Source: a virus. From it: a DNA stretch of 43,034 nucleotides. The notes under the pieces are model-generated. The model did not search any database. It was not told the origin of the DNA and saw nothing but the letters and a program-made list of their open reading frames with translations. The translations under genes and the position numbers were made by a program. The stretch lies in the IMG/VR virus record IMGVR_UViG_3300035510_000237; one strand, 5' to 3'. Below, one piece after another: positions 2,269 through 43,034 of this stretch. The first letter of the stretch is position 1; each line of letters opens with the position of its first letter.

Positions 2269-2280
2269 TATAATATAATT

Positions 2281-13175: not shown

Positions 13176-13257
13176 TAAACGCTAGATTTACAGTAATCTA
13201 TTGTGCCATATATTTACTCCTTTCTCTCTCGGTTTTTCTATTTGCAAATAAAAAAAT

Positions 13258-13295
13258 AAAGGGTATTAGAGCTAAATAACTCTAATACCCTTAAC
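13258..13295. terminator. Bidirectional stem-loop between the chaperone-like gene and the TMP gene.
   Basis: AGGGTATTAGAG-ctaaataa-CTCTAATACCCT 12-bp stem flanked by A/T runs. Confidence 0.4.
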
Positions 13296-16424: not shown

Positions 16425-17221
16425 TTAATTTTCCTCCTTAAAAACAAATTTCTATTTTTTTCTCTATAAAAATAACTCAGGGTTATTTTTATACATAAAT
16501 TTGCCTATTCTTATAGTATCTTTTTTACCAAATCGAATAGACATAGAGGAAGGGTCATAACTTCCGCCTTCAACGCCCGCTTTATCTTTTAAAATAGCCC
16601 ATAAAGTATTTAAAAAATCTTTACTGCCACTAGTAAATGCGCTGTTTAAACGATTGTTTTTTAACCGCATAATGCACCCGTCGCCATCAAAATATCCACG
16701 AATAAAATCTGCTAAATACTCTTCTGGAATCTCTGGGAACTTAGCTGTTAAGCTTTTTCTCTCTGACCCTCCTAGAGAAATTATATCATTATATATAACT
16801 ACACAGCTAAAATTAAGCCTAGCCGCCTATCTATCAACGTAATCATAAAGGCTACCTTCATAGTTTAGTTCTTCAGCTATACGCTTTAAAATATATTTAT
16901 CTTTAGCGTGTAATGTTATATCAAACATTTTACCCCCATAGATACATCCATCAGCAAACCATAGCCCTAAAATGTAAGCCATATTATTTGACCATGTTTT
17001 AAAATAATCCTAATTGATATGCCATTTTCTAGCATTCTAAGATTGTACTTTACTTTTTTCTTCCTATGAGAGTTTTTTAATAGCTTTATGCTAATGATAG
17101 CAATAACTATATATCTAGTCCTTCGTATAGACCTTATTAAAGTATTCATACCATTCGGGCAAGGTTTTACTCTCACTCTAAGTTAAGAGAATCTCCTTAT
17201 GTTCCGGTAATATCGGCAAAA
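16425..17221 (-). CDS. Free-standing LAGLIDADG homing endonuclease with two motifs, TAG-recoded, immediately upstream of the intron-containing major tail protein gene.
   Basis: Motif 1 is MAYILGLWFADGCIYGG and motif 2, about 95 aa later, is ADFIRGYFDGDGCIM. The frame contains track ORF 16464..16670. The start is uncertain. It is either the ATG at 16982 with a weak RBS, or the upstream TTG at ~17221 after AAAAGGAAG, read through 6 TAGs. It ends at the TAA at 16425-16427 if TAG is sense, or at the TAG at 16464 if not. Confidence 0.6.
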
Positions 17222-17242
17222 TATTACACTTCCTTTTCAATT

Positions 17243-17974
17243 TTATTGATGAAGATTTTTCATCCAATCATCTGGTTTGGAATCTGGCTTGCCTCCCGCC
17301 AAACGAGAACGAATATCCAAATCCCAGTTTATATAAAGCGAATATCTTTCAATTAAATCATATAGCTAATATATAGTACAATTTAATAAATCCTATAATG
17401 ACATTGACTCTAAACCAATAGTCAATATTGAAACATATCGGCTTAATATACTTGAATTATTGTCTCCCTTCTGCGCAGCGACCCTCTAGCGTCCGCGCAT
17501 CAGCTTATCCGCAATTTCTTTAGCTTTTGAATTACCAGGATTAAATGACTACTAATCCATTGGCCCATTCTTAGAGCAACAAACTAATCTAATAGCGTCC
17601 TAAAGGCTATCAAAATTATTTTCATCAACAGTAATCATTTCATCTTCATTCTAAAAGATTAAAGACCTTGGAGCAAATAAAACATTATTTTTTGGAAAGA
17701 ATAAGCTCAAAACCTGCTAGACGCAAATTTTCTTATCCGCAGTTTGACGCTCATTCATCACTGTCATAAATATCTAAAAATTGGTTATATTCTCTAAATT
17801 ATCTTTGCCCTACTAAATAAACATTGATTTATGTAAGGTTAAAGTCTAAACTCCAATGAAAAAATCTTCTTCTCCTAAATAAGATATTTCTTTAATAGAA
17901 GGCTAATGAAGAACTAATCTACAAGGAGGTATTGGAATATCTGTGCCTGCCATTAAAGCTAGTCTGGTATCCAT
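17243..17974 (-). CDS. Hypothetical neck/tail protein, ~243 aa, TAG-recoded.
   Basis: Its ATG overlaps the upstream stop (ATAATGG). It reads MDTRLALMAGTDIPIPPCRLVLH(Q)PSIKEISYLGEEDFFIGV(Q)TLTLHKSMFI(Q)(Q)GKDNLENITNF(Q)IFMTVMNERQTADKKICV(Q)QVLSLFFPKNNVLFAPRSLIF(Q)NEDEMITVDENNFDSL(Q)DAIRLVCCSKNGPMD(Q)(Q)SFNPGNSKAKEIADKLMRGR(Q)RVAAQKGDNNSSILSRYVSILTIGLESMSL(Q)DLLNCTIY(Q)LYDLIERYSLYINWDLDIRSRLAGGKPDSKPDDWMKNLHQ* with TAA at 17243-17245. Confidence 0.4.
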
Positions 17975-31039: not shown

Positions 31040-31088
31040 AATAAATACCTCCTTCAAAATAAAATAAATAAAGATTTATAGTTCTTAA

Positions 31089-32135
31089 TCCGTTTTGGCC
31101 TTGTTTGTCTTTTGATTGCGGCAAGCTTTACAAATACTATAAAAGCCATCTTTACTTGTTTTATTTTTACTAAAATATTTATTATTAGCTAATTTGATTT
31201 GCCCACATCGACTACATTTTTTATAAGCACCTTTTTCTTTATTCAAATAATGCCAACTTAATAAATTATCTTCGGCCGCAGAAGCAATTAAATTTGGGAT
31301 TTTTTTGCGCCATAAACTAGAAATATATTCAATGCTATGCGTTGTTCCAAATTCTTCTTCTAACAGTTTTTGGATTTCCGCGTTCTATTTTCCATCTATC
31401 TTATATTCAACAATCCGCTTATAAAAAGGATAATCTTCTAAAGCCTAATCACATACTTGCTCGAAGTCATAAACTAAAAACCATAAGTCTCCTTCAAACT
31501 AATCCCAACTATCTTCTTTTAATCTTGAATAATTACATAATATGGCAGAGCAGACTTTTGGATTACATAATGAAATTCCTTTAGGAATGACTCTACCTTC
31601 ATCACTAATTTCAAAATCTTCATCTAACTTTGTATAAATTTTTGAACGAGTAAGCTTATTTGGCACAATAGGACGTCGATAAGCATTTTTAATTACATAC
31701 TAATCTTTGCGCATTTCAATCAATGCTTTTTTAATAGTATAGGCTTGTTTTCCCTCAGTGACCTTTAATTTTGCTTCCCAAACTGTAATAGAGTCGCGCA
31801 ATTGTTTTAGTGGAGGAATTTCTTCAATATCTTTTTTTGTAATGGTTACTTTTGGCTAAAAAATTGTTGTTTTACTATCACTCATTAAACTATAAATACC
31901 ATCTTCGCCATTCTCCAGCTAGGAAACAAGTCCTTCAAAGGAAGTTTCTCGTTTATTAACAGTGGTCATTCGATTCTCTGTTAGTATTTGTTTTTCTTTT
32001 TTCTCCTACTTCTCCATACAAAGAACTAAATAATCTGCTAATATTTCTAAATATTTCTCATTCGGCTCTGGGGTTTCATTTAAAATCTATTGAACTAACT
32101 AATTTCGCTCTTCGGGAGTGCTAAGAGTATAATCT
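31089..32135 (-). CDS. Hypothetical protein with a C-terminal CxxC..CxxC zinc ribbon, ~345 aa, TAG-recoded (about 9 TAG). Possible late regulator or DNA-binding protein. The start is uncertain.
   Basis: One frame is open from ~32135 (GGAGGTG nearby; start codon unresolved, candidates are GTG and an internal ATG) to the TAA at ~31089. It reads ..EPNEKYLEILADYLVLCMEK(Q)EKKEKQILTENRMTTVNKRETSFEGLVS(Q)LENGEDGIYSLMSDSKTTIF(Q)PKVTITKKDIEEIPPLKQLRDSITVWEAKLKVTEGKQAYTIKKALIEMRKD(Q)YVIKNAYRRPIVPNKLTRSKIYTKLDEDFEISDEGRVIPKGISLCNPKVCSAILCNYSRLKEDSWD(Q)FEGDLWFLVYDFEQVCD(Q)ALEDYPFYKRIVEYKIDGK(Q)NAEIQKLLEEEFGTTHSIEYISSLWRKKIPNLIASAAEDNLLSWHYLNKEKGAYKKCSRCGQIKLANNKYFSKNKTSKDGFYSICKACRNQKTNKAKTD*. Confidence 0.35.
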
Positions 32136-32204
32136 AACTTGATTATATATCTCACCTCCATTACTTTTATTATAGCAAAAATTTTGGTCAAAGTCAACTG
32201 TTTT

Positions 32205-32232
32205 TGACAAATAAAAAAATTTTTGGTATAAT
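32205..32232 (+). promoter_or_regulatory. Sigma-A-type early promoter: TTGACA, 16-nt spacer, TATAAT.
   Basis: ttgacaaataaaaaaatttttggtataat lies ~30 nt upstream of the RBS and ATG at 32262. Confidence 0.55.
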
Positions 32233-32261
32233 ATTTTTAGAAAAATGGAAAGGGATAAAGT

Positions 32262-32483
32262 ATGATTTTCTCTATTATTTTAAATATTGTTTTAGCAATC
32301 ATGTTGGTAGGTTTATTTTTATTTGTTAAATATGTTTTGTTAAATTCTGTTTTAATTGATATATATGCAGATGCGGCAGCTCGACAACAAGTTGAAAATA
32401 TATTTCCATGTGATTATTTATTAATAGAAATAGCAACTAATTCTACTACTGATGGTTTTTCTTATGACTTTTCAAAGATATGA
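32262..32483 (+). CDS. Small membrane protein, 73 aa.
   Basis: Track ORF with a hydrophobic N-terminus (IILNIVLAIMLVGLFLFVKYVLL). Promoter and RBS are upstream, and it ends in TGA. Confidence 0.5.
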   Translation: MIFSIILNIVLAIMLVGLFLFVKYVLLNSVLIDIYADAAARQQVENIFPCDYLLIEIATNSTTDGFSYDFSKI

Positions 32484-32715
32484 AGAATTCAAGGTTATTG
32501 GAATGACAATTTTTACTCAAAGAACTAAAGATGATTTTTTTGAACATCAAGTAGAAATTGCCAAAAAATTGGAAAACCGCATTCCCGCAGATGATTTAGA
32601 AGATGTACTTGATGAAGCATTGAGTGAAATCATAGTTGTCCCAGATACTTACATATATCAAACCAAGGAGGGAACATACCATTGGCTCATGGAATTGCAA
32701 TCTTTTTATGGTTGA
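32452..32715 (+). CDS. Hypothetical early protein, ~84 aa; overlaps the previous gene, so the start is uncertain.
   Basis: Track ORF. It is acidic, ..DDLEDVLDEALSEIIVVPDTYIYQTKEGTYHWLMELQSFYG*. Confidence 0.4.
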   Translation: MVFLMTFQRYEEFKVIGMTIFTQRTKDDFFEHQVEIAKKLENRIPADDLEDVLDEALSEIIVVPDTYIYQTKEGTYHWLMELQSFYG

Positions 32716-32892
32716 CTTTATCAACCGTTGCTTTTCTTGAATATAGAGAATTTTGTTAGGATTTAAGTTTTGGAGCTAAGTTTGTAGTTATTACTATTTT
32801 TATAATTGGTGGGCCATTTTTTGCAGTCGCTGAAGTATTAAGTGCTATATTAGATTGTATACTGCCTTCCGGATGGGATGAGGATGATAGAC

Positions 32893-33303
32893 ATGACACT
32901 TTCGGGTGATGGAGCTTTAAGATTAAGTTTACTGTTGGAATGGGATGAATATACCAAAGAGCATGGATTAAAGAATCCTTATAAAAAGCGCAACAATGTT
33001 TTAATAGCTAATTCAGATAAAATGCGTGTAACCAGCACAGGTGTTATTTATGAAAATGATGTAGAGGCGCAACTTCCTCCAAAAGAAGAATGTGAAAATT
33101 GGAATAAAATGGAGTATGAATTTGTTGCGCGAGGCTTCCTAAAGGAAGCAGGATATGATGGCTTTCTGCGGCAAGTAGAATTTGCGCGAGGAGCTATTGA
33201 TTATTTGATTGATGAAATTTGTCCATGCGAAGCTGATGATGGTCAGTGTCATATGGATTGTCGATATTATGAAGGAGGGTGTACTAATGACTTTAGTACC
33301 TGA
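32893..33303 (+). CDS. Hypothetical Cys-rich early protein, ~136 aa.
   Basis: Track ORF 32878..33303, with the likely start at the ATG at 32893 (MTLSGDGALRLS..). The C-terminus CPCEADDGQCHMDCRYYEGGC is a possible metal-binding cluster. Confidence 0.45.
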   Translation: MTLSGDGALRLSLLLEWDEYTKEHGLKNPYKKRNNVLIANSDKMRVTSTGVIYENDVEAQLPPKEECENWNKMEYEFVARGFLKEAGYDGFLRQVEFARGAIDYLIDEICPCEADDGQCHMDCRYYEGGCTNDFST

Positions 33304-33538
33304 GAATACTACTAGACGAGTGGATGGGCTTGGCCGCATTACGCTGCCACGAGGCCTGCGGCAAAGATTTGCTATTGATGATAAAACTGAAATGGAAATT
33401 TATACTATGAATTATAATGGTAGAAATTATATTTGCCTTGGCGAAGCTAATGAAGTTGATGATAAGTATATCACTGCTAAAAATGTATTAGAAGAGCTTG
33501 GTGTGGAAGTTCCGCCTGAGCTTTTAGAAAAATTCTAA
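33287..33538 (+). CDS. AbrB/MazE (SpoVT_AbrB swapped-hairpin) family DNA-binding protein, 83 aa.
   Basis: GAAGGAGGGTGTACTA-ATG. It reads MTLVPENTTRRVDGLGRITLPRGLRQRFAIDDKTEMEIYTMNYNGRNYICLGEANEV.. The core R-VD-LGRI-LP---R--F-I---D-E-EIY matches the AbrB N-domain consensus. The track ORF 33209..33538 is the same frame starting upstream. Confidence 0.6.
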   Translation: MTLVPENTTRRVDGLGRITLPRGLRQRFAIDDKTEMEIYTMNYNGRNYICLGEANEVDDKYITAKNVLEELGVEVPPELLEKF

Positions 33539-33849
33539 ATTGGAAGGGAAGGTTTACACCTTCTCTTCTTTTTATTTTATTAAAGGTACTTAATTCTTAT
33601 TTTCCCAGAAATAAATAAATCGTGATGCCGAATTTAAAAGAGGTTTTGGAGGGAGTATAGCTCAGAGCAAACCCGATTCAAAAAACGAAAAAATTATTCT
33701 CCCGAAATACCCCCGCCCCCTACATCAATCAGAAAAAATTTTTTCGTTTCAGTCTCAGAAAAATATATAAAAGGTATTGCCGGGTCGCCAGAAAAGCAAC
33801 GCATCGAGCGTCTTGCCACCGCGGAGGTTTCACAGGCGCGCTAACGACC

Positions 33850-34330
33850 AAAAGCGCCGTAGTTTCAGCGCTTTAAAGTGTTGAAGTATTTTTTATCTAA
33901 TTGCTTCACCGCACTAAAGCATTGAAGCATCCCATAATGCACTTTAACACAGTAAAGCATTAACAATTTAAAGTCTTTCTCTCATGGACACCTGTGAGTT
34001 AGTTAGAACTAACTATGGTTAGCCCTAACTAACCCCCGGGCACTTTAACACAGTAAAGCGCTAATACACCGCCGCATTAACGCATTAATACTTTAGTGTG
34101 GCAGAGCGCACTTTAGCACAGTAAACAGCTAATGTTTTAAAGTTCTCCTGGAGCGGACACTTTAACACATTACAGTGCTACCTCGCTGACTCGGCAGAGC
34201 GCACTTTAACGATGTAAAGGGGCGATGTATTGAAGCAAAGAATTTTTAAATTATCTATTCGGCGCACTTCACTGCCCTAAAGCGCTAAAGCAAGGGGCGC
34301 CCTAGCAATCTGCACAAAGACAGGGCCGCA
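33850..34330. repeat. Non-coding iteron-like cluster with one core palindrome.
   Basis: A 19-20 bp unit (G)CACTTTAACACAGTAAAGC occurs about 5 times (~33938, 34040, 34108, 34158, 34200). There are also GCTTTAAAGTG/CTAAAGC dyads, GGCAGAGCGCACTTTA twice, and the palindrome GAGTTAGTTAGAACTAACTATGGTTAGCCCTAACTAAC at 33996-34033. No ORF lies on either strand. Confidence 0.6.
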
Positions 34331-34346
34331 TCTTTGTCTAATCTGC

Positions 34347-34381
34347 GAGCTTGACTAAACGCTGTTTAGCTGCTATAATAG
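34347..34381 (+). promoter_or_regulatory. Early promoter TTGACT-17-TATAAT.
   Basis: cttgactaaacgctgtttagctgctataatagagc lies upstream of the RBS (AAAGGAGAG) and ATG at 34413. Confidence 0.5.
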
Positions 34382-34412
34382 AGCTACAAAGAACAAAGGA
34401 GAGATACACACT

Positions 34413-34613
34413 ATGACACACTACACTATCACTTGCCCATACACTAACACTACCATTAAGAGAACCATTAGTGAATACGAGGCTATTGCTACAATGAGAC
34501 AGTTCACAACATACACCTTTGGAGAAATCTACCAGCTTAGTAAAAAGAACAATCCCCTGACTCTTTCCAGTAGCATGGGCATTATGTACACAATGACCAA
34601 AGAGATTGATTAA
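34413..34613 (+). CDS. Hypothetical early protein, 66 aa.
   Basis: Track ORF with a good RBS and a TAA stop. Confidence 0.5.
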   Translation: MTHYTITCPYTNTTIKRTISEYEAIATMRQFTTYTFGEIYQLSKKNNPLTLSSSMGIMYTMTKEID

Positions 34614-34694
34614 CATTTGTGCAGAACGCCACTTGAAAAGCGAATAAAGATAGAGTATAATAAAGGCACAGAAACGATGAAGGAGATATAAACT

Positions 34695-34877
34695 ATGAAG
34701 ATGTATGCGAAAACAAACAGCAAATGGATGGGCGTTTATCATTCCTCTCCTAATGAGTGGACAGAGGTCAAGTATGAAACTGAAAAGTATTTCCCCTCTG
34801 GTAGACGTGAGGTTCTGGTATTCGCAAACGGCGCAATGGAAAAGGCTGACAGATGCGATGTCTGCTATGTGTTTTAA
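34695..34877 (+). CDS. Hypothetical early protein, 60 aa.
   Basis: Track ORF with GAAGGAGATATAAACT-ATG and a TAA stop. Confidence 0.5.
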   Translation: MKMYAKTNSKWMGVYHSSPNEWTEVKYETEKYFPSGRREVLVFANGAMEKADRCDVCYVF

Positions 34878-34895
34878 TAGAAAGGGGTACAAACG

Positions 34896-35012
34896 ATGAA
34901 AAAGGTTATCATAGGTTTGGCTATCTTGCTTGCGGGTTTGATTGGTGCGGCGCTTGCAACACACAACGCAAAAAGCTATGTTTATAATGTAGCATACTAT
35001 GACGGTGTGTAA
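34896..35012 (+). CDS. Small secreted/membrane peptide, 38 aa.
   Basis: AAAGGGGTACAAACG-ATG. It reads MKKVIIGLAILLAGLIGAALATHNAKSYVYNVAYYDGV*, a lipoprotein-like signal, and ends in TAA. Confidence 0.4.
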   Translation: MKKVIIGLAILLAGLIGAALATHNAKSYVYNVAYYDGV

Positions 35013-35231
35013 GCACGTTAGTTGATGAAGACGGCGAAACGTTCATTGGTGACTATGACCTTGCAGAGGGTACATACTATGTGTGTTATGATAGCAATAA
35101 GACAGTAACAAGACTGGATGATGTACCTGTTAGATTTGAAAAGCTGGACTAATTGAAGTCCCTTTTAATAAGAAGAAGTAGTATCTGGTATAGTAATAGA
35201 ATGGGAATGAAAAACGGCATTCCCATTCTAT

Positions 35232-35340
35232 TATTTAAAATGAGTTAGTTAGAACTAACCATGGTTAATTGAAACTAACCCAGTAGCGCGAGTTAGTTAG
35301 AACTACCTACTGTTAGTTACCGCTAACGGCCTAGACTTCA
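35232..35340. repeat. Palindrome cluster (TTAGTTAGAACTAAC family) plus the conserved CCGCTAACGGCCTAGACTTCA box.
   Basis: gagttagttagaactaaccatggttaattgaaactaacc ... gagttagttagaactacctactgttagttaccgctaacggcctagacttca. Confidence 0.55.
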
Positions 35341-35434
35341 CCACGCTAAAGCGTTACAACAAAAAATCGCTAATTCGATGATGCTTTAAAGCACTAAAGT
35401 ATTTCCCGAAATGCTGCTTTAAAGTATTGAAGTG

Positions 35435-35570
35435 CGAGTTAGTTAGAACTAACTATGATTAGTTCTAACTAACTAGGGACTATGGGTTAGTTAGAACTAA
35501 CTATGATTAGTTCTAACTAACTAGGGACTATGGGTTAGTTAGAACTAACTATGATTAGTTCTAACTAACC
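35435..35570. repeat. Tandem array, three units of ~43 bp, of the perfect palindrome AGTTAGTTAG-AA-CTAACTAACT paired with its mirror TTAGTTCTAACTAACTAGGGACTATGGG.
   Basis: gggttagttagaactaactatgattagttctaactaactagggactat is repeated 3 times head to tail. Each unit contains two oppositely oriented 10-nt arms. Confidence 0.65.
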
Positions 35571-35715
35571 AAGGCGGACAGCAACACTTTAAAGCACTAA
35601 AGAGTTTGCGTGGACGTTTAATCAAAGACTTTAATAGATTAAAGTATTAAAGAAAAGTTTGCGCTGACATTCAAACAAACTTTTAAAAAGTTTTTGATTT
35701 TTATACAAAAACCCC

Positions 35716-35744
35716 TTGACAAATGAATGAAAAGGGCTTATAAT
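35716..35744 (+). promoter_or_regulatory. Early promoter TTGACA-17-TATAAT.
   Basis: ttgacaaatgaatgaaaagggcttataat lies upstream of the RBS and ATG at 35779. Confidence 0.55.
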
Positions 35745-35778
35745 GGTCACAGAATTTAACGAAAGGGGCTAATACATT

Positions 35779-35967
35779 ATGAAGTATAGCTATTATGAAA
35801 ATCTTATTGACAACGCTGAGACTGTTGAGGAAGCCGACCACATTATTACTTGCATTGAATGCGACATGAATATCACCGATGAAGATTTTGAAAAATCTAT
35901 TGTCTATGCACAGGAAGTTATGGACGAATTGGAAAGAGCACATAAATGGGAAAGAGATTTCATGTAA
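35779..35967 (+). CDS. Hypothetical acidic early protein, 62 aa.
   Basis: Track ORF with RBS GAAAGGGGC and a TAA stop. Confidence 0.5.
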   Translation: MKYSYYENLIDNAETVEEADHIITCIECDMNITDEDFEKSIVYAQEVMDELERAHKWERDFM

Positions 35968-36020
35968 TACAATTTGAAAAGAAAGGGCTACTTTTTAAAG
36001 GTAGCCCCTTTTTTACCCTA

Positions 36021-36340
36021 TGAGTTAGTTTCAACAAACTATAGTTAGTTCTAACTAACCTATAGGGCCAGTTAGTTAGAACTAACTACTGTTAGGCTCC
36101 GCTAACGACCTAGACTTCAATGCTTTAAAGTGCTAAAGTAAAATTTTGCGATTTTGGCGTCGCTTTAAAGTGCTAAAGCGATTCCCGAAATTCAACACTT
36201 TAAAGTGCTAAAGAGTTTGTGCGAGCGCTCACGCAAAGACTTCAGCAAGCTAAAGTGCTAAAGAGTTTGATTAAACGTCAATGGACTTTTAAACGAGAAT
36301 TTTAGCACGTTAAAGTATTAAAGTGCTGCTGATGGAAAGA
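36021..36340. repeat. Third copy of the composite non-coding repeat: palindromes + CCGCTAACGACCTAGACTTCA + CTTTAAAGTGCTAAAG iterons + TCCCGAAAT.
   Basis: gagttagtttcaacaaactatagttagttctaactaacc..ccagttagttagaactaactactgttaggctccgctaacgacctagacttcaa, then gctttaaagtgctaaag 3 times, gattcccgaaatt and ctaaagtgctaaagag twice. Confidence 0.6.
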
Positions 36341-36577
36341 AATGGGGTGTTACCCCCATTTCTTAAAGCTGGATTTCTCCCAGGCTCATATTTTTGATTT
36401 CTTTCATTATTTGACTTTTTAATGGTCAGAATGTGAACTAGGGAAAATACAAATTGACACCTTGTTTTCAGCACATTTTGGAGGAAAAACACATTCTGAC
36501 ACTATAAATTCCCTTGATTTTGTTGTAAGATATAGACGTTCCAAGGGAACGCAAACAAAATAAAGGGGTTTGATACT

Positions 36578-36742
36578 ATGGCATACAGAAATTATAAAAA
36601 AGCAATCAATGGTTGTTTCAACTACAATGAGGCTTTAGAGGTTTTCACCCAGGCTATGAATGATTCTAGGGTATCCAGCAAGCACTTGGAAAAGTTAAAT
36701 GCGCTGTGCTGGAATCGTTTCGTCCTTCGGGTAGCTTGTTAA
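36578..36742 (+). CDS. Hypothetical early protein, 54 aa.
   Basis: AAAGGGGTTTGATACT-ATG. It reads MAYRNYKKAINGCFNYNEALEVFTQAMNDSRVSSKHLEKLNALCWNRFVLRVAC* and ends in TAA. Confidence 0.4.
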   Translation: MAYRNYKKAINGCFNYNEALEVFTQAMNDSRVSSKHLEKLNALCWNRFVLRVAC

Positions 36743-36777
36743 AAGCTACCCACGAAAAAGAAAGAGAGGTTATACAA

Positions 36778-36948
36778 ATGACTATGCAAGAATTTTTCTC
36801 CGCTTGGAACGACTTTTTCCAGAACGAACTTGACAACTACAACACTATCCAGGCCGGCATTGATTTTTTTGTGAATGAACATGCTACCAGTTACGAGGAA
36901 TGGAATGCTATGCATGAACTGCTAGAAGATTCTTTCTCAGACCTTTAA
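36778..36948 (+). CDS. Hypothetical acidic early protein, 56 aa.
   Basis: AAAGAGAGGTTATACAA-ATG. Same frame as track ORF 36706..36948. TAA stop. Confidence 0.45.
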   Translation: MTMQEFFSAWNDFFQNELDNYNTIQAGIDFFVNEHATSYEEWNAMHELLEDSFSDL

Positions 36949-37053
36949 AAAAAAATAAGGTTTTTTTTCAAAAAAGAGTTGACTTCTAGGCCATTATCTG
37001 CTATACTATCAACGTGGGAACACACTATATAAATTTTTTTGGAGGCATGTAAA

Positions 37054-37182
37054 ATGTATACTAGCTTTGATTATGAAATTCAGTCTGACGAATTCGCAAT
37101 GGAATACGAGGAATGGCTAGCCCTTCAGGAGGAGCTTTACAATCCTGATTTTGAGGACATGGAAAAGAGCCTGAATAGCTGA
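37054..37182 (+). CDS. Hypothetical acidic early peptide, 42 aa.
   Basis: Promoter gagttgacttctaggccattatctgctatact then GGAGGCATGTAAA-ATG. It reads MYTSFDYEIQSDEFAMEYEEWLALQEELYNPDFEDMEKSLNS* with a TGA stop, followed by the hairpin terminator CCCCTGGGtgaaaatCCCAGGGG at ~37194-37217. Confidence 0.4.
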   Translation: MYTSFDYEIQSDEFAMEYEEWLALQEELYNPDFEDMEKSLNS

Positions 37183-37234
37183 CACAAAGAAAAATCCCCT
37201 GGGTGAAAATCCCAGGGGACAAAATGAAAAAAGT

Positions 37235-37270
37235 TCTTGACAAAACAGCATTTATAGCTTATACTATAAG
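37235..37270 (+). promoter_or_regulatory. Early promoter TTGACA-18-TATACT.
   Basis: ttcttgacaaaacagcatttatagcttatactataag. Confidence 0.5.
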
Positions 37271-37327
37271 AGAAGTCGGAACCCACCAAAAAATGACCGC
37301 CTTAAAGGCAGAGAGGAAACGATAATT

Positions 37328-37663
37328 ATGAAAGCAACTGAGATTAAAACCACATTCACCACCGATTGGACTTGCGACTATCTGGAAAGCCAGATGAATG
37401 AACGTTACAAGTTAATTGGTACTTCAAGAATAGACCGCATAACCCATGAATGCTTTTTCCATGGAATAGACGGCGATAAAGATATGGTCGAACCTGAATT
37501 CAGCTGGGATGTTCTGGAAAAGAAATTCATGGCAGTGGTAAATGAGGCTACTGAAATTATGAAAGCCCAATTTGCTGAGGCTTTCCAGGCGGAAAAAGAA
37601 AGAAAAATTGATACCTGGAAATGGGTAGCAGAGGAAAAAGCTGAAATGGCAGAAAACGAATAA
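37328..37663 (+). CDS. Hypothetical early protein, 111 aa.
   Basis: Track ORF with RBS GAGAGGAAACGATAATT-ATG and a TAA stop. Followed by the terminator hairpin TTTCCCGGTTC..GAACCGGGAAA at ~37673-37710. Confidence 0.55.
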   Translation: MKATEIKTTFTTDWTCDYLESQMNERYKLIGTSRIDRITHECFFHGIDGDKDMVEPEFSWDVLEKKFMAVVNEATEIMKAQFAEAFQAEKERKIDTWKWVAEEKAEMAENE

Positions 37664-37729
37664 ACAAAAAAACTTTCCCGGTTCTTGGAAACAGGAACCG
37701 GGAAAGATACAAAATATATAAGATTAGTA

Positions 37730-38060
37730 TGTTTTAATAGACTAAAGTATCAAAGTATACTGCGGCGGTATGTTTTAATACTTTAGCAAACTAAAACCTG
37801 GTGTAGAGGTATGTTTTTGCGATTTACTGTGATAAAGCATAGCAAGAAAGTATGTTTTGGTACTTTAAATTGATAAAGCGTCTCTCAGGGAAGGATACTT
37901 CAACGCTTTAAAGCACGGCCGCGCGTTGGCGGAGGGCGCAGCCCGTTCTGCCGCTTTAAAGTGCTAAAGCAAAAAATTCTGCTATATGCTTCATCGAGCT
38001 AAAGCGGTGAAGCACTCCCGAAAGCCACGCATCGTGCTCATAGCGGAATGAACAAACTTT
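37730..38060. repeat. Fourth iteron-like cluster of the (C)TTTAAAG / (G)CTAAAG family.
   Basis: ctaaagtatcaaagtatac, ttttaatactttagcaaactaaaac, ctttaaattgataaagcg, cgctttaaagcacggcc, ccgctttaaagtgctaaagc, gagctaaagcggtgaagcactcccgaaag. Confidence 0.5.
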
Positions 38061-38082
38061 CTAGCTCATCTTTGTGCATTAT

Positions 38083-38115
38083 GCCGGCTTGACAAAGCTC
38101 TAGCCGCATGATACA
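38083..38115 (+). promoter_or_regulatory. Early promoter TTGACA-17-TACAAT.
   Basis: cttgacaaagctctagccgcatgatacaat lies upstream of the RBS and ATG at 38148. Confidence 0.5.
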
Positions 38116-38147
38116 ATAGAGCCACACCATAGGAAAGGATTGATATT

Positions 38148-38381
38148 ATGTTAAAATTTAGGATTTATGACGCTGTGCAAGGTGATTTTCTGTTTCATAC
38201 CACTAGCAGGCTCGAAGCTATCCAGTTTCTGAACGTTGTGGAAGATGTTTTCAAGAAGGTGCATGGTGCATCCATTTTTCGGTACAGCTCTTACTATCTG
38301 GATATCTATGTTCCTAAGTCTGTAAATGAATACCAAAAAGCAGTATCTCTGCTTATTAGCGCCACTGCGGAAGGGGAATAA
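38148..38381 (+). CDS. Hypothetical early protein, 77 aa.
   Basis: Track ORF with RBS GGAAAGGATTGATATT-ATG and a TAA stop, then the hairpin GGGGAAtaacaTTCCCC. Confidence 0.55.
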   Translation: MLKFRIYDAVQGDFLFHTTSRLEAIQFLNVVEDVFKKVHGASIFRYSSYYLDIYVPKSVNEYQKAVSLLISATAEGE

Positions 38382-38404
38382 CATTCCCCTTCCCTTTTAT
38401 CCCA

Positions 38405-38445
38405 TGAGTTAGTTAGAACTAACTATAATTGGTTCTAACTAACCA
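38405..38445. repeat. Palindrome pair of the TTAGTTAGAACTAACTA family.
   Basis: gagttagttagaactaactataattggttctaactaacc. Confidence 0.55.
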
Positions 38446-38541
38446 AAAAAATATTTTTTTTTATTTTTTTTATTTACCCCCTTGACAAATCAATAAAAAA
38501 GTAGTATATTATAGATACAAAGTTTAAAGGAGCTGTTACCT

Positions 38542-38847
38542 ATGACTGAAATGGATAAACTTATCCGCCTGATGGGCGATTCTATCATTCCGCATGAGAT
38601 TGTTATGCACGAACTTACTCACACCCTTGCGATTGTCTACCCTTCCCGCAAGAATTATGTATGTGATGCCGTGTGTCATGAGTATTCCTATGGTGGCCCA
38701 TTGGGCTTGCTTGAAATCATGGGTTTGGTCGGTGATGACATTCTCGATGATGTTGAGGGCTGGCTCACTGCCGAAGAAGTGTTTGACAGAATCCGGAAGC
38801 ACTACTGTGAAAACTATGAACTAATTGACCTATTGGAGGGAATCTGA
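38542..38847 (+). CDS. Hypothetical early protein, 101 aa (Cys/His-containing).
   Basis: Track ORF. Promoter ttgacaaatcaataaaaaagtagtatatt, RBS AAAGGAGCTGTTACCT-ATG, TGA stop, then the terminator CTGAGCttcgGCTCAG+TTTTT. Confidence 0.55.
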   Translation: MTEMDKLIRLMGDSIIPHEIVMHELTHTLAIVYPSRKNYVCDAVCHEYSYGGPLGLLEIMGLVGDDILDDVEGWLTAEEVFDRIRKHYCENYELIDLLEGI

Positions 38848-38875
38848 GCTTCGGCTCAGATTTTTCCTTTAGCAA

Positions 38876-38965
38876 GAGTTAGTTAGAACTAACCATGGTT
38901 TACTCTAACTAACTAGAGGGAGCTATGGGTTAGTTAGAACTAACTATGATTAGACTAAACTAATT
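38876..38965. repeat. Palindrome cluster of the TTAGTTAGAACTAAC family.
   Basis: gagttagttagaactaaccatggtttactctaactaactagagggagctatgggttagttagaactaactatgattagactaaactaa. Confidence 0.55.
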
Positions 38966-39051
38966 GCGGCGCGCAATAAAAAAAATTAAAAAAAAACTAT
39001 TGACAAATTAAAATTTTATGATATAATATAAACATAAGATAAAGAAAGGAA

Positions 39052-39255
39052 TTGATACAAATGCTGTACAATGATAACATCGAATTCAATACCCTGTGGG
39101 AAGATATGGTAGAATGTGGAATCGCCACTGATGCAGAGCTGAGCCTTGCTTGTGCGCTGTGCGGTACTACTAATGAGACTTTAACAAGCGTCCTTTACAT
39201 TCGGACAGGCTGTAGAAGCTGGGCGCAAGTTATGGGAGAGGATGAAGAAGATTGA
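39052..39255 (+). CDS. Hypothetical early protein, 67 aa.
   Basis: Track ORF. Promoter ttgacaaattaaaattttatgatataat (TGn extended -10), leader aagataaagaaaggaattgatacaa-ATG, TGA stop. Confidence 0.55.
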   Translation: MIQMLYNDNIEFNTLWEDMVECGIATDAELSLACALCGTTNETLTSVLYIRTGCRSWAQVMGEDEED

Positions 39256-39336
39256 AAAATCTTCTTCAAACCCCTTGACAAGCCAATAGGAACGTGCTAT
39301 AATAAAGCTACAAGATAACGAAAGGAACTGATTCAA

Positions 39337-39609
39337 ATGACGTATAATTATTACAAGGCTGAACTGGACTATGCCGAAGATGAAGAATCCATTCGGGAAA
39401 TTATGGCTGGGGCTGAGATTGACGAATCTCTTTGTGATGAAGATTATGACCGCCTATATTGTATCGCCGAAGAATACATGGAGGAAATAGAAATGGAAGC
39501 CGAAGCACTTGCGCAAGAAGAAGAAGAAGAAACAGAAGAAGAACCTAAATGCTGGGGAATGCGTGACTACCTGAGATATATCGGCATGAAAGAAAAAGAC
39601 TTCCAGTAA
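39337..39609 (+). CDS. Hypothetical highly acidic early protein, 90 aa.
   Basis: Track ORF. Promoter cttgacaagccaataggaacgtgctataat, leader cgaaaggaactgattcaa-ATG, TAA stop, then the terminator hairpin AAGAGGATTTTCAT..ATGAAAATCCTCTT at ~39617-39657. Confidence 0.55.
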   Translation: MTYNYYKAELDYAEDEESIREIMAGAEIDESLCDEDYDRLYCIAEEYMEEIEMEAEALAQEEEEETEEEPKCWGMRDYLRYIGMKEKDFQ

Positions 39610-39778
39610 TTGGAAAAGAGGATTTTCATTTGAATAAAATAAAATGAAAATCCTCTTGCTCCATTTTCAAATCATTTTTTGATAGACACTTTTACAATTT
39701 TCAAATGATTTTTTGAATTTGCCTATTGACAAACTTCCAAACCTGTGATATAATAAAACCATAAGATAAAGAAAGGAA

Positions 39779-40045
39779 TTGATAATTATGATTAGCGCAT
39801 CAGATGCAAAAACAAAGGCCAAGACTTTTCTGGAAGAGAAAGAAAGAGCTGAGAGAACCAAAACCGTCAAGTGGGTAGAGGATGTGGTTGCTCTTAAAAT
39901 TGAAAGTGCTGCTGAACGGGGTACTTTTAGCATTGAAGTTTATATTCCTGGGGAAATGACAATTAAGTATGTGCAAGACCATTTGCGCAATCTGGGTTAT
40001 AGAACTGAGATGCACGCCTTTAATATGGCGATTCTTTGGGGCTAA
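39779..40045 (+). CDS. Hypothetical early protein, 88 aa.
   Basis: Track ORF. Promoter ttgacaaacttccaaacctgtgatataat, leader aagataaagaaaggaattgataatt-ATG, TAA stop. Confidence 0.55.
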   Translation: MIIMISASDAKTKAKTFLEEKERAERTKTVKWVEDVVALKIESAAERGTFSIEVYIPGEMTIKYVQDHLRNLGYRTEMHAFNMAILWG

Positions 40046-40054
40046 AAAAAGTTC

Positions 40055-40102
40055 TTGACAAATCCCTCTTGGAATGCTATAAATATAAGTGTTCCAAGAG
40101 GG
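40055..40102 (+). promoter_or_regulatory. Promoter with an embedded inverted repeat: TTGACA-[CCCTCTTGGAA]-TATAAA-[TTCCAAGAGGG].
   Basis: ttgacaaatccctcttggaatgctataaatataagtgttccaagaggg. The 11-bp arms flank the -10 hexamer. This is the first of five such promoters. Confidence 0.55.
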
Positions 40103-40132
40103 AAATAACCAATAGAAAGGAATTGATAAATC

Positions 40133-40456
40133 ATGGAAAAAATCGTTTTTAGTCAACATTGCTTAGAGGAAAGGCAAGACCGCATTGTGCGCATTGCGTC
40201 AACTATTGGTTTTGGGAATGTGATTGCGAAAGTCCATAGTTCTAACAGGACGGGCGCAACTGTTCACTGTCTGACTGATACAGGCGTTGTAATCGTAAAG
40301 GACAGCCGGGAAGAAATGGTTATTACATTGTTTGTCTGTAACATTGATAGGCTTTACGCTTATTGGAGAAAGATGGGACAGGATAAACCCCCACGGCAAA
40401 TTATGAAGGTTGTAGAAAACAACGAAAGAAAAAGAAAATTTCTTTATGAAATTTAG
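40133..40456 (+). CDS. Hypothetical early protein, 107 aa. It is the only early gene that terminates at TAG.
   Basis: Track ORF with leader agaaaggaattgataaatc-ATG. The stop is TAG at 40454-40456; readthrough would add 16 codons up to a TAA. Confidence 0.55.
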   Translation: MEKIVFSQHCLEERQDRIVRIASTIGFGNVIAKVHSSNRTGATVHCLTDTGVVIVKDSREEMVITLFVCNIDRLYAYWRKMGQDKPPRQIMKVVENNERKRKFLYEI

Positions 40457-40465
40457 AAAAACCTC

Positions 40466-40513
40466 TTGACAAAATCCCCTTGGGATGCTATAATATAAGT
40501 GTTCCAAGGGGAA
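40466..40513 (+). promoter_or_regulatory. Promoter with an embedded inverted repeat: TTGACA-[CCCCTTGGGA]-TATAAT-[TTCCAAGGGG].
   Basis: ttgacaaaatccccttgggatgctataatataagtgttccaagggg. Confidence 0.55.
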
Positions 40514-40533
40514 CAAAACAAATTTGAAAGGAA

Positions 40534-40920
40534 TTGATACAAATGATAGATTTTATTTCTAATGGAGAAAAAACCATTGCTATTGACCTGGAGACTACTG
40601 CTATTCCTGTGGAGTACGCTAGAAAGATTTGTGAGGCCAAACAGAGAGAAAAGCTAGAAGCCTATAACAAAAAGATTGCAACTTTGGTTAAAACTGCTAT
40701 TTCTCACATTAACGAAGAGCTTATGAATGGAAAGATTCATGCATCTTATCTTTTTACCCCTTATAATGCAGATATTTCCAGAGACGATGCCCTTAAAATT
40801 TGCCATTTGATTGAAGCAGAGTTTAAAGATAAAGGATATTGGACTTTCATTTATGAGTATGCTGAAAGTAACCACAATAAATATGCTAGCATTGACATTT
40901 CTATCCCCGAAAAAAAATAA
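40534..40920 (+). CDS. Hypothetical early protein, 128 aa.
   Basis: Track ORF with leader tgaaaggaattgatacaa-ATG and a TAA stop. Confidence 0.55.
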   Translation: MIQMIDFISNGEKTIAIDLETTAIPVEYARKICEAKQREKLEAYNKKIATLVKTAISHINEELMNGKIHASYLFTPYNADISRDDALKICHLIEAEFKDKGYWTFIYEYAESNHNKYASIDISIPEKK

Positions 40921-40932
40921 ATAAAAAATCTC

Positions 40933-40980
40933 TTGACAAATCTCTCTTGGAGTGATATAATAAAGATGCTCCAAGAGAGA
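40933..40980 (+). promoter_or_regulatory. Promoter with an embedded inverted repeat: TTGACA-[TCTCTCTTGGAG]-TATAAT-[CTCCAAGAGAGA].
   Basis: ttgacaaatctctcttggagtgatataataaagatgctccaagagaga. Confidence 0.55.
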
Positions 40981-40996
40981 TAAACAAAGAAAGGAA

Positions 40997-41275
40997 TTGA
41001 TAATTATGAAAATTTATGAAATTCTCACCGCTAGCTATCTCAACAGTGATAGAAACCAAGAGATATGTGCTTATGTTGCATCAAAAGAGATTGTGGAAGA
41101 TTATATCCATGCGTGTATCCCTGAAATTACATCGGTCACTGATAAAAAAGATGGCAGAGTTGTTTGGGCATCAGATTGGAAATGGACAGATTTCCCCGGT
41201 TTTGCTCCTGGGCTTGTTTATAGAGATAAAGAAAATTGTATATTCTTTAGAGAAATCGAAGTAATTGAAAATTAA
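40997..41275 (+). CDS. Hypothetical early protein, 92 aa.
   Basis: Track ORF with leader agaaaggaattgataatt-ATG and a TAA stop. Confidence 0.55.
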   Translation: MIIMKIYEILTASYLNSDRNQEICAYVASKEIVEDYIHACIPEITSVTDKKDGRVVWASDWKWTDFPGFAPGLVYRDKENCIFFREIEVIEN

Positions 41276-41278
41276 CTC

Positions 41279-41327
41279 TTGACAAAACCCTCTTGGAGTG
41301 ATATAATAAAGATACTCCAAGAGGGAG
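41279..41327 (+). promoter_or_regulatory. Promoter with an embedded inverted repeat: TTGACA-[CCCTCTTGGAG]-TATAAT-[CTCCAAGAGGG].
   Basis: ttgacaaaaccctcttggagtgatataataaagatactccaagaggg. Confidence 0.55.
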
Positions 41328-41345
41328 ATACAAAACAGAAAGGAT

Positions 41346-41576
41346 TTGATAACTATGGTAGGAACAAAGGTATGGTGCTTGTTTGATGAATCAGATTTGC
41401 TGGGAATTTATTCCACCAAAGAGAAAGCCCTAGCGGCAACTAAAGAGATATTTTTTGAAGAAGATGTCTTTTTTTCGTATGAAGAGGATGAAGCAGAAGA
41501 GGCGCTTAAAGATTTGGAAGATACTGGCGAAGCACCCACCTGCGGATTCTTTCTTAAAGAATTTATTTTGGAATAA
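41346..41576 (+). CDS. Hypothetical acidic early protein, 76 aa.
   Basis: Track ORF with leader agaaaggatttgataact-ATG and a TAA stop. Confidence 0.55.
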   Translation: MITMVGTKVWCLFDESDLLGIYSTKEKALAATKEIFFEEDVFFSYEEDEAEEALKDLEDTGEAPTCGFFLKEFILE

Positions 41577-41579
41577 CCC

Positions 41580-41628
41580 TTGACAAATAGCCCTCTTGGT
41601 GCTATAATAATAGCATCAAGAGGGAAAC
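41580..41628 (+). promoter_or_regulatory. Promoter with an embedded inverted repeat: TTGACA-[GCCCTCTTGGTGCT]-ATAATA-[AGCATCAAGAGGG].
   Basis: ttgacaaatagccctcttggtgctataataatagcatcaagaggg. Confidence 0.5.
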
Positions 41629-41658
41629 CGAAAAACAAATTTAAAAGGAATTGATATT

Positions 41659-41898
41659 ATGGCAACACTGAATGAACTCACTGCTTTTTATGATACCCTG
41701 TATTACAAGAAAACCCAGGCGGAATTTATTTCCGATGAAATGGATGAAATCCTTTCTGCGGTTGCACCCTGTAGCCCCTTCAAGTGCGATAGATGCCGAT
41801 TCAAAACAGAGTGTGATATTGAAAACAGAATGGTTTATCTGGAAACCGAATATTCCCAGCTGATGCAAGATATTAGAAACGCTATCAGAAAACTGTGA
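41659..41898 (+). CDS. Hypothetical early protein, 79 aa, with a CxxC..C pattern.
   Basis: Track ORF with leader aaaaggaattgatatt-ATG and a TGA stop. Terminator-like GAGGGCTTGCGCCCTC + T-run at ~41897-41925. Confidence 0.55.
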   Translation: MATLNELTAFYDTLYYKKTQAEFISDEMDEILSAVAPCSPFKCDRCRFKTECDIENRMVYLETEYSQLMQDIRNAIRKL

Positions 41899-41994
41899 GG
41901 GCTTGCGCCCTCACTCTTTTTTAAAATTTTTCTTGACAAATAAAAAATTTTATGATATAATATATATACAAGATATGAAAGGAGGCTATTCCGA

Positions 41995-42114
41995 ATGACA
42001 TTGGAATTATTCAAGGCGCTCTGTGAGATTCTGAAGTAGTGTTTAGCCACTGCGGACTGTAGCTCTTGCGCGCTGAGAGAGTTTTGTGGAAAAATTCCTA
42101 CCTCTTGGGTATGA
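41995..42114 (+). CDS. Micro-ORF: a 14-aa peptide ending at TAG, or a 39-aa Cys-rich peptide if TAG is read through.
   Basis: Promoter ttcttgacaaataaaaaattttatgatataat, RBS GAAAGGAGG, ATG at 41995. It reads MTLELFKALCEILK then TAG at 42037-42039, then in frame (Q)CLATADCSSCALREFCGKIPTSWV then TGA at 42112-42114. A strong terminator, AATCCTAGCgcaaaaGCTAGGATTTTTT, lies downstream at ~42218-42252. Confidence 0.3.
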
Positions 42115-42265
42115 TATTTCTACCGGGTCGACTTCTTCGAGGTCGGTTCGAATGTCGCGCGAATCTAGCCTTCTGACATTATTTTACAAAAATATAACAT
42201 TTTTACCCTACTAATTTCCTCCCAAAAATCCTAGCGCAAAAGCTAGGATTTTTTATAAAAAGGAC

Positions 42266-42298
42266 TTGACAATTTTTTGCCAATGTGATATAATATCT
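42266..42298 (+). promoter_or_regulatory. Early promoter TTGACA-17-TGATATAAT.
   Basis: cttgacaattttttgccaatgtgatataat. Confidence 0.55.
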
Positions 42299-42325
42299 TT
42301 AGAAACAGGAAAGAGAGTGATTCCA

Positions 42326-42466
42326 ATGATAATCTACAGAATCATTTTGATTGACAAAATTGGAGGTAGACACAAAATAAATACCAAGTTCTTTTCTTAC
42401 AAGAAAGCACAAGCAACAGCACAAAGATTTAACCTGAAATATTTCATTATTAAGGAGGAAATATAA
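42326..42466 (+). CDS. Hypothetical small basic protein, 46 aa.
   Basis: GGAAAGAGAGTGATTCCA-ATG, in frame with track ORF 42266..42466, which starts upstream of the promoter. TAA stop. Confidence 0.45.
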   Translation: MIIYRIILIDKIGGRHKINTKFFSYKKAQATAQRFNLKYFIIKEEI

Positions 42467-42467
42467 A

Positions 42468-42587
42468 ATGGATTCTACTACTTACACTTTGATTATTCTG
42501 GGAATTATTACTTTATTCGGTGTATGTTGTGGCCTTGCCATTTTGGGATGGCTTGTAAAATGTGCATTTATTGCATTATTTATTTAA
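42468..42587 (+). CDS. Small hydrophobic membrane peptide, 39 aa.
   Basis: GGAGGAAATATAAA-ATG. It reads MDSTTYTLIILGIITLFGVCCGLAILGWLVKCAFIALFI* and ends in TAA. Confidence 0.4.
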   Translation: MDSTTYTLIILGIITLFGVCCGLAILGWLVKCAFIALFI

Positions 42588-42653
42588 AAAACTCTTGACA
42601 GCAGCTCGCAAGTGTGGTATAATATAGTCACAATAAAGAAAGGAATTGATATT

Positions 42654-42848
42654 ATGAAAGATTATTACACAACTCCCACTCAGGTGAAATTCACTCAGCT
42701 ACCAGAACTTGACCTCTGGATTGGCGGCATCGCTTTTCAGAACTCTATCATTTGCGGATGTTGCGGAGGTGTGTTTCCTATGAGTTCTATCGAAGGAATT
42801 GAGGAAATGCCCTGGATTGACATTAACGAAGAGATTAAAGGAGAGTGA
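42654..42848 (+). CDS. Hypothetical early protein, 64 aa, with a CGCCGG motif.
   Basis: Promoter ttgacagcagctcgcaagtgtggtataat, leader agaaaggaattgatatt-ATG at 42654, in frame with track ORF 42612..42848. TGA stop. Confidence 0.5.
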   Translation: MKDYYTTPTQVKFTQLPELDLWIGGIAFQNSIICGCCGGVFPMSSIEGIEEMPWIDINEEIKGE

Positions 42849-42853
42849 TATAA

Positions 42854-43034
42854 ATGAAATTTCTAATTATGTTTATCGTTTTATCTATCATAAACGTAAC
42901 TTTTTCAACAGCCCGGTCTATTATGACCATTAAGGGTGGAAAGATTATTGCAAGCCTATTTTCTGGTGGTTATTTCGCTTTCTACAATGTCATGCTGATT
43001 TATACAGTAGCAGATTTTCCCATGTGGCAAAAAT
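42854..43034 (+). CDS. Small membrane protein, 3' partial at the window end.
   Basis: ATG at 42854 lies 5 nt after the previous stop. It reads MKFLIMFIVLSIINVTFSTARSIMTIKGGKIIASLFSGGYFAFYNVMLIYTVADFPMWQK.. Confidence 0.4.
   Translation, partial: MKFLIMFIVLSIINVTFSTARSIMTIKGGKIIASLFSGGYFAFYNVMLIYTVADFPMWQK

Follow-up and report, generated by a model that had tools for sequence, protein, structure and literature searches.

Promoter-early stem-loop (PeSL) cassettes are known from the T4-type phages RB49, phi1, PST and nt-1, where G-T pairs occur in the stems, terminator activity was seen in a reporter and recombination takes place (PMC2839356; PMC4122927). They mediate modular shuffling and mini-circle formation (PMC2839356; PMC4122927), and one PeSL stem-loop terminated transcription in a lacZ reporter (PMC2839356). 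In the literature that we searched, PeSLs were described almost only from T4-like myoviruses, with one later mention in a paper on a cyanophage. Here we analyse a stretch of phage DNA of 43,034 nt (IMG/VR record IMGVR_UViG_3300035510_000237, hereafter the window), in which five consecutive promoters on the + strand, between positions 40055 and 41624, each carry a hairpin around the −10 box. From their sequence and arrangement these promoter-hairpin cassettes are best read as the PeSL kind in a new phage lineage.

As in PeSLs, an intergenic unit of ∼100 nt is repeated that contains a stop codon, an AT-rich tract, a sigma-70-type early promoter, a stem-loop, a Shine-Dalgarno sequence and an ATG. 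The stem-loop of PeSLs often lies inside the promoter and a subclass overlapping the −10 box has been described (PMC2839356); here the −10 box is enclosed. Both systems have G-T pairs in their stems, both are flanked by small genes without annotated function, and in both close relatives differ by indels at the cassettes. All sequence features of a PeSL were thus found, namely promoter, stem-loop, repetition between small genes with leader and ATG, and indels at the cassettes. However, the window phage is of an unrelated lineage with TAG-recoded late genes, a sigma-like factor of its own and Gram-positive-style extended −10 promoters. Its stems are longer and of mixed composition with a CTCTTGG core, whereas PeSLs have G4/C4, and its hairpins lack a U-rich tail. 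The original prediction, a reading of the window made without database searches, had described promoters and stems, but missed both this close precedent and the role of the cassettes as points of gene gain and loss.

Other described systems share single traits with the window. The RNase III sites of T7 and SP82 contain internal loops, and each receives a single cut, on the 3' side (PMC1935012). Like the window hairpins, these sites lie between cistrons, have no U-tract and occur where the host polymerase transcribes early regions strongly, but they enclose no promoter, whereas the window stems are fully paired and span the start site. The host-takeover region of SPO1 resembles the window in its tandem strong early promoters with one small gene each, a conserved leader with ribosome-binding site, and a hairpin. 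Its hairpins are short, lie wholly downstream of the −10 box and the start site and are preceded by separate terminators; with the −10 box not enclosed, SPO1 was rejected as a homologous architecture. In the fold-back of IS10/Tn10 the downstream arm covers the translation start, and Davis, Simons and Kleckner reportedly placed the upstream arm of IS10 ahead of the element's own start site in 1985. The inverted repeat of IS10 also straddles its own start site, with a structure only in outside transcripts, but the downstream arm of the window stops 25–35 nt before the ATG.

The five hairpins and their conserved pairing

The hairpin of the five cassettes is real. Folded as + strand RNA, the five stems reach −21.4 to −25.3 kcal/mol compared to about −6 to −9 in shuffled sequences (z −5.7 to −9.2), and none of 200 dinucleotide shuffles was as good. 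A total of 984 consensus promoters was gathered through the leader motif alone, blind to the arms. A spacer/downstream stem score of ≥10 was found in 17 of these, five of which are the window copies, compared to 1.6 expected when spacers were re-paired with the downstream regions of other promoters. No comparable stem accompanies the other consensus + strand promoters of the window. When metagenomes and genomes were scanned for promoter plus arm L only, a matching arm R was missing from most unrelated promoters whose spacer contains CTCTTGG, so the inverted repeat is not forced by the promoter sequence. Arm R was present where the phage-type leader of a hit was clearest (L214, L249; loci outside the window carry L numbers, with positions after a colon) and in L217, L251 and L226, which have different leaders. 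A scan of IMG/VR with a core-only pattern returned chiefly chance matches in coding regions and ∼10 true cassettes, and the criterion "any minimum-free-energy pair enclosing the −10 box" was dropped as too noisy in AT-rich sequence. Against Rfam the hairpins had no match at E ≤ 1; one RT-6 match below the threshold (18.7 bits, E 0.88) overlaps the edge of the HP2 promoter on the − strand.

The cassettes are part of a six-gene unit with the following features (fold energies in kcal/mol; each ORF is the one that the cassette is predicted to drive):

39616-39657, + strand: left boundary of the unit, a 16-bp hairpin just past the upstream gene's stop codon; arms 100% complementary, followed 3' by T-rich sequence
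39726-39754, + strand: first promoter of the unit, TTGACA-17-TATAAT, without hairpin; taken as the source of read-through transcripts
39788-41898, + strand: six small standard-code ORFs of 85, 107, 125, 89, 73 and 79 aa, with only cassettes between them
40055-40103, + strand: HP1; −35 box 40055-40060, −10 box TATAAA 40078-40083, arm L 40063-40078, arm R 40088-40103; fold −25.3, z −7.8; 107-aa ORF 40133-40456
40466-40512, + strand: HP2; −35 box 40466-40471, −10 box 40489-40494, arm L 40475-40489, arm R 40498-40512; fold −24.5, z −6.1; 125-aa ORF 40543-40920
40933-40981, + strand: HP3; −35 box 40933-40938, −10 box 40956-40961, arm L 40940-40953, arm R 40968-40981; fold −21.8, z −8.0; 89-aa ORF 41006-41275
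41279-41325, + strand: HP4; −35 box 41279-41284, −10 box 41302-41307, arm L 41288-41300, arm R 41313-41325; fold −21.4, z −5.7; 73-aa ORF 41355-41576
41580-41624, + strand: HP5, short-spacing class; −35 box 41580-41585, −10 box 41603-41608, partly in the stem, arm L 41591-41605, arm R 41610-41624; fold −25.3, z −9.2; 79-aa ORF 41659-41898
41895-41914, + strand: right boundary of the unit, a canonical intrinsic terminator with TCTTTTTT after an 8-bp GC-rich stem, in contrast to the U-less hairpins

Each cassette of ∼85 nt consists of a stop codon, an A-rich tract, TTGACAAA, 17 nt, TGnTATAAT, a leader of ∼45 nt with AAAGGAATTGATA, and the ATG. All five predicted promoter sites are present. TTGACA-17-TATAAT is perfect in four copies and has one mismatch in the fifth, and the TG extension and A-rich upstream sequence are common to all five. 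The claim that every copy contains TATAAT holds for the last four only, since HP1 has TATAAA through a 1-nt insertion; close relatives have TATAAT there. This sigma-70/sigma-A consensus points to the host polymerase. Arm L lies in the spacer that separates the −35 box from the −10 box and reaches the TG of the extended −10, and arm R starts 4–6 nt past the −10 box and falls within the first ∼15 nt after it. The arm pairs were quoted correctly and extend further if G.U pairs are allowed, giving stems of 13–16 bp in the window and up to 17 bp in relatives. Loops measure 12–14 nt in three copies, 8–9 nt and 4 nt in the remaining two. Two more hairpin promoters of the same type lie 0.3–2 kb past the right end of the window (L273:9200 and L273:10930), which extends the array to at least seven members.

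The original prediction also proposed compensatory covariation between the arms and, on this basis, a stem that is under selection and makes the element more than a promoter. Both held: by sequence comparison, pairing was shown to be conserved through compensation, in distant cassettes as well as in close relatives, which supports selection on the stem. The distant set comprised 20 cassettes (the window and 12 other loci) aligned on their conserved cores, the invariance of which was imposed by the search patterns. Of its cells 86.6% were paired, compared to 70.3% in column shuffles and 44–55% with the partner slid by 1–3 columns; changes on both sides occurred in 11 of 16 pairs and the covariation score was 0.49 versus 0.18. 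The close set comprised contigs that encode an identical 107-aa protein and are ∼90–95% identical to the window, with 14 distinct cassette variants. Six pairs were altered on both sides, including the core, where CTCTTGG/CCAAGAG became CTCCTGG/CCAGGAG, three pairs alternated solely between G.U and Watson-Crick, and only one of 182 cells of the 13 central pairs was unpaired. For HP5, GGTGC/GCATC is replaced in relatives by GGTGT/ACATC and in another relative by GGTGC/GTGCC, with three transitions in one arm and pairing kept via wobble. Broken pairing, for which related phages were checked, was not the rule: the relatives compensate instead.

Gain and loss of genes at the cassettes

Alignment to close relatives showed that gene indels end at cassettes. 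Gene order varies among these contigs (L274, L276-L282); compared to the window, whole genes are gained or missing, and the indel boundaries coincide with cassettes. The 125-aa and 89-aa genes are absent from L274, L276, L277, L279 and L282, and the 89-aa gene is absent from L278, L280 and L281. L278 and L280 carry one more gene, of 55 aa, together with a further cassette. At the junctions the overlap of the alignment blocks, ∼85–100 nt, corresponds to the cassette itself. The cassettes there are mosaic, with parts of those on either side; L276, for example, joins an arm L of the HP3 type to an arm R of the HP4 type, still paired through one U.G. Between more distant contigs, cassettes are 78–89% identical although the adjacent genes show no similarity. 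Among five ORFs the 107-aa protein alone has distant relatives in the fetched loci, none of them beside the same cassette type, and five of the six ORFs, tested against PHROGs, received no functional annotation. By this comparison, recombination at the cassettes is shown, with the repeated cassette as the source of homology for events that delete, insert or swap small genes.

A PeSL-like architecture with its link to gene turnover is thereby found in an unrelated, uncultured gut phage, which suggests convergent evolution of promoter-plus-hairpin modules as a unit of early-gene turnover. Near-identical contigs that differ by whole modules, together with compensated stems, give an unusually clean population record and make a convenient system to study the role of the hairpin in termination, processing or insulation. 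The cassettes are also potential compact, strong and self-contained expression cassettes for Clostridia-type hosts.

Predicted structure in read-through RNA and proposed function of the hairpin

Wherever a pair is not Watson-Crick, it is G.U on the + strand. In stability the + fold exceeds the − fold in all five window copies and in 19 of 23 family members, and among the strong stems of close relatives (about −20 kcal/mol or below) it does so in all but one. The core-to-core distance varies from 10 to 24 nt, with two main classes that differ by a symmetric 2 bp, and related phages have unrelated arms at the same position (CTTAACTT/AAGTTAAG and CCCTTCCC/GGGAAGGG). Taken together, these points favour a structure in + strand RNA and argue against a dimeric protein operator and a two-strand cruciform; a hairpin of single-stranded + strand DNA is, strictly, still conceivable. 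Of the two physical options in the original prediction, the RNA stem-loop in read-through RNA therefore fits better, while the cruciform is disfavoured by loops of 12–14 nt and A.C mismatches. A terminator on the minus strand (tail ATTTGTCAAG) was considered and rejected: the − folds are weaker, G.U turns into A.C, and all called genes lie on the + strand for 3.4 kb rightward.

If transcription starts at the usual 7 nt past the −10 box, +1 is probably the purine at the 5' edge of arm R. The cassette's own transcript would then begin with arm R and lack arm L, so the full hairpin would form only in RNA begun at an upstream promoter. Antitermination, one of the roles initially considered, does not agree with this, since arm L is absent from the promoter's own predicted transcript. 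Between 39754 and 41895 we found a single weak terminator-like site on the + strand, and this one is intragenic. With no terminator between the six genes, transcripts are expected to read through all five cassettes. Own transcripts with this start would open with small 5'-terminal hairpins built from arm R alone (40500-40513, 41314-41326, and L006 on the − strand, cassette 4333), such as GUUCC-AAGG-GGAAC, CUCC-AAGAG-GGAG and ACUCC..GGAGU, the flanks of which covary; this suggests a possible 5' stabiliser.

We consider it probable that these are composite promoter/stem-loop cassettes of the PeSL type in a lytic, TAG-recoding phage and that the hairpin acts as an intercistronic insulator on read-through RNA. 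Each cassette would drive one small gene from its own promoter, and the hairpin would form in + strand RNA that arrives from upstream promoters only. There, a near-perfect double-stranded stem may attenuate the read-through RNA, cause it to be cut, or bound its decay, with RNase III, RNase Y or RNase J1 as candidate host enzymes. As a result, each gene would be expressed according to its own promoter, whatever the position of the module. More tentatively, the hairpin might discriminate transcripts by their origin, a possibility that we rate clearly below the insulator role itself. Straddling the start site, it would tag only RNA from the neighbouring module, and tagged RNA would be cleaved, decayed, or capped with a barrier to decay. 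If this is true, promoter-gene modules would be independent of context and free for shuffling. The hairpin would then be a phage-evolved counterpart of the RNA-processing insulators known from synthetic biology, and its use would amount to a general rule of design in hyperplastic early regions.

Several points weigh against the insulator reading. The start site, the read-through RNA and its cleavage or termination all rest on inference from the sequence. The 20-cassette set was partly picked for having a stem, which is an ascertainment bias, and copies in one genome are paralogues and so non-independent. Complementary double changes can also arise in the absence of selection, through templated "quasi-palindrome correction" during replication. 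At L273:10410 arm L (CCCTTCCC) is an orphan that lacks its arm R, compared to the full hairpin at L274:9226 (CCCTTCCC/GGGAAGGG); the hairpin is therefore dispensable for a working cassette, and the pair of loci fits a crossover inside the loop. Finally, the hairpins are poor intrinsic terminators, yet termination is the only PeSL stem-loop function that was tested, for one stem-loop and in E. coli (PMC2839356).

The same stems, 13–16 bp of near-perfect double-stranded RNA without a U-tract between the cistrons of a multi-promoter early unit, could instead be specific RNase III processing sites that turn a polycistronic RNA into defined monocistronic mRNAs, as in the early mRNAs of T7 and of SP82 of B. 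subtilis (PMC1935012; PMC4838370). To this we give only a modest chance. The single downstream-side cut at the internal loops of the T7 and SP82 sites leaves a protective 3' hairpin, whereas the window stems have no internal loops, are shorter than two helical turns and, being fully paired, are expected to be cut on both sides, so that read-through RNA would be severed rather than matured; the hairpins of the SPO1 early cassettes, wholly downstream of the start site, are no parallel either. An intrinsic terminator or attenuator of the upstream gene, overlapped with the next promoter to save space, is somewhat more doubtful still. PeSL stem-loop 211/210 did reduce lacZ expression about as much as rrnB T1 (PMC2839356), some related phages have clear terminators over the −35 box (e.g. 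GGGGCTTGacaaCAAGCCCC then ATTTCTG), and in two relatives, L251:4794 (−) and L047:11265 (+), the same CTCTTG/CAAGAG stem is followed by a U-tract; these two look like true terminators, with the −10 box of L251 in the loop. In the window, however, A-rich sequence and no U-tract follows all five copies (tails GGGAAATAAC, GGAACAAAAC, GATAAACAAA, GAGATACAAA and AAACCGAAAA) as well as all close-relative variants, and three of the five loops have 12–14 nt. Moreover, the region ends its units with canonical U-tract terminators (41895-41914 and a second one at 42224-42253). On these grounds efficient intrinsic termination is unlikely, which leaves a role in processing, stability or insulation on read-through RNA as the probable molecular action. 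A terminator scan listed none of the five stems on the + strand, its sole match at the stems being a 6-bp − strand mini-hairpin in HP2 arm R (40515-40500). A canonical terminator stands upstream of only 11% of ordinary promoters, and the independent hairpins are too few for a comparison of depletion.

An IS10-style fold-back, in which the hairpin in read-through RNA lowers downstream translation from foreign transcripts, would share the IS10 geometry of an upstream arm ahead of the own start site. Arm R does adjoin the ribosome-binding site, or overlap it, in some relatives (L214:647, L091:1886, L176:9553), and in L120:6891 the ribosome-binding site itself pairs with arm L. The stem of the window ends 25–35 nt before the ATG and 10–25 nt before GGA and leaves the ribosome-binding site free, which makes this explanation improbable here. 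A hair less probable again is an element that acts as DNA, either a cruciform or single-strand hairpin for a supercoiling-sensitive promoter or a structure-specific recombination site like integron attC. Perfect inverted repeats centred on the AT-rich −10 box would suit it, as would the role of cassettes as recombination boundaries, the PeSL crossovers mapped in or beside the stem-loop (PMC2839356), and the G.T pairs, which a hairpin of single-stranded + DNA also tolerates. But the central spacers of 12–14 nt in three copies and the A.C mismatches on the other strand disfavour extrusion, which would moreover abolish the 17-bp geometry of the −35 and −10 boxes. The mosaic junctions with variable crossover positions and ∼90 nt of homology point to ordinary homologous recombination, and no recombinase was identified nearby in a non-exhaustive search. 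A palindromic operator, by which a dimeric phage or host repressor would shut off the early promoters, is very improbable. The −10 box does lie between half-site-like cores, CTCTTG and CAAGAG, but their spacing of 10–24 nt is not fixed; the cores covary (CTCCTGG with CCAGGAG), and so do the flanks, which protein half-sites do not require. The invariance of the core in the wide set is a product of the search patterns, and other cassettes have unrelated arm sequences.

Surrounding genes and related phages

The window is 43 kb of phage DNA with 35% G+C and a two-part layout. The late block (1-32236, − strand) is open only with TAG as a sense codon: ORFs of ≥150 aa number 6 under the standard code versus 28 with TAG read through, and one ORF has 114 in-frame TAGs. 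Its products include a portal protein, a sigma-factor-like protein and one protein with weak similarity to the terminase large subunit. The part at ∼32200-43034 (+ strand) has many small standard-code ORFs, each behind a consensus TTGACA-17-TGnTATAAT promoter (12 perfect matches observed versus 0.27 expected). No tRNA genes were found within the window, and blastn of the window against INPHARED phages gave no match.

The sigma-factor-like protein (31085-32236, − strand; phrog_5767, E 1e-54) has a C-terminal zinc-finger/HNH-like tail, and its gene adjoins a divergent promoter region at 32169-32232; its sequence suggests a phage sigma factor used for late transcription. The recoded late block also contains an ORF for a LAGLIDADG homing endonuclease (16425-17267, − strand; Pfam PF14528, 47.8 bits). 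A giant ORF of 3285 aa (2279-12136, − strand) is rich in coiled-coil-like sequence and is preceded by a 252-aa ORF (12532-13290, − strand). Judged by eye, the two together look tape-measure-like; against Pfam the 252-aa ORF gave one sub-threshold, unrelated match only, and tape-measure families were not searched for either ORF.

At the left end of the six-gene unit, between the hairpin at 39616-39657 and the promoter at 39726, a motif of ∼17 nt occurs in two copies, TTCAAATCATTTTTTGA and TCAAATGATTTTTTGAA (39666-39717), which could be an operator for the first promoter. The leader motif AAAGGAATTGATA precedes nearly every early + strand ORF, ∼10 nt before the ATG (e.g. 40119-40131, 40992-41004). 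It resembles the full complement of a Bacillus-type 16S 3' tail, AGAAAGGAGGTGATC, with the central GG replaced by AT, and looks like a "split" Shine-Dalgarno sequence. The motif also marks a large group of IMG/VR phage contigs of 100–200 kb.

Many promoters of related phages share sequence with a canonical terminator in which the −35 box takes part (L057, L089, L107, L109, L125, L006:581, L120:6891), for example GGGGCTTGacaaCAAGCCCC then ATTTCTGCTATAAT. As in the window, the hairpin shares bases with the promoter at the same intergenic position; there, however, a U-rich spacer follows, whereas the window hairpins enclose the −10 box and have no U-tract. The phage group thus uses several promoter/hairpin subclasses, as PeSLs do. 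Further repeats around promoters were seen in L262:4344 (Gemmiger metagenome-assembled genome, MAG), where a bacterial tRNA-gene promoter has an 8-bp CTCTTGGC/GCCAAGAG repeat around the −10 box, and in L229, L243, L231, L234 and L239, where a promoter with a bulged TTCTCTTGGAA/TTCCAAAGAGAA repeat stands before a GC-rich, structured-looking leader. Most MAG labels of the hits in the genome collection, several of which lack arm R, name Oscillospiraceae, Ruminococcaceae or other Clostridia, which hints weakly at the host range.

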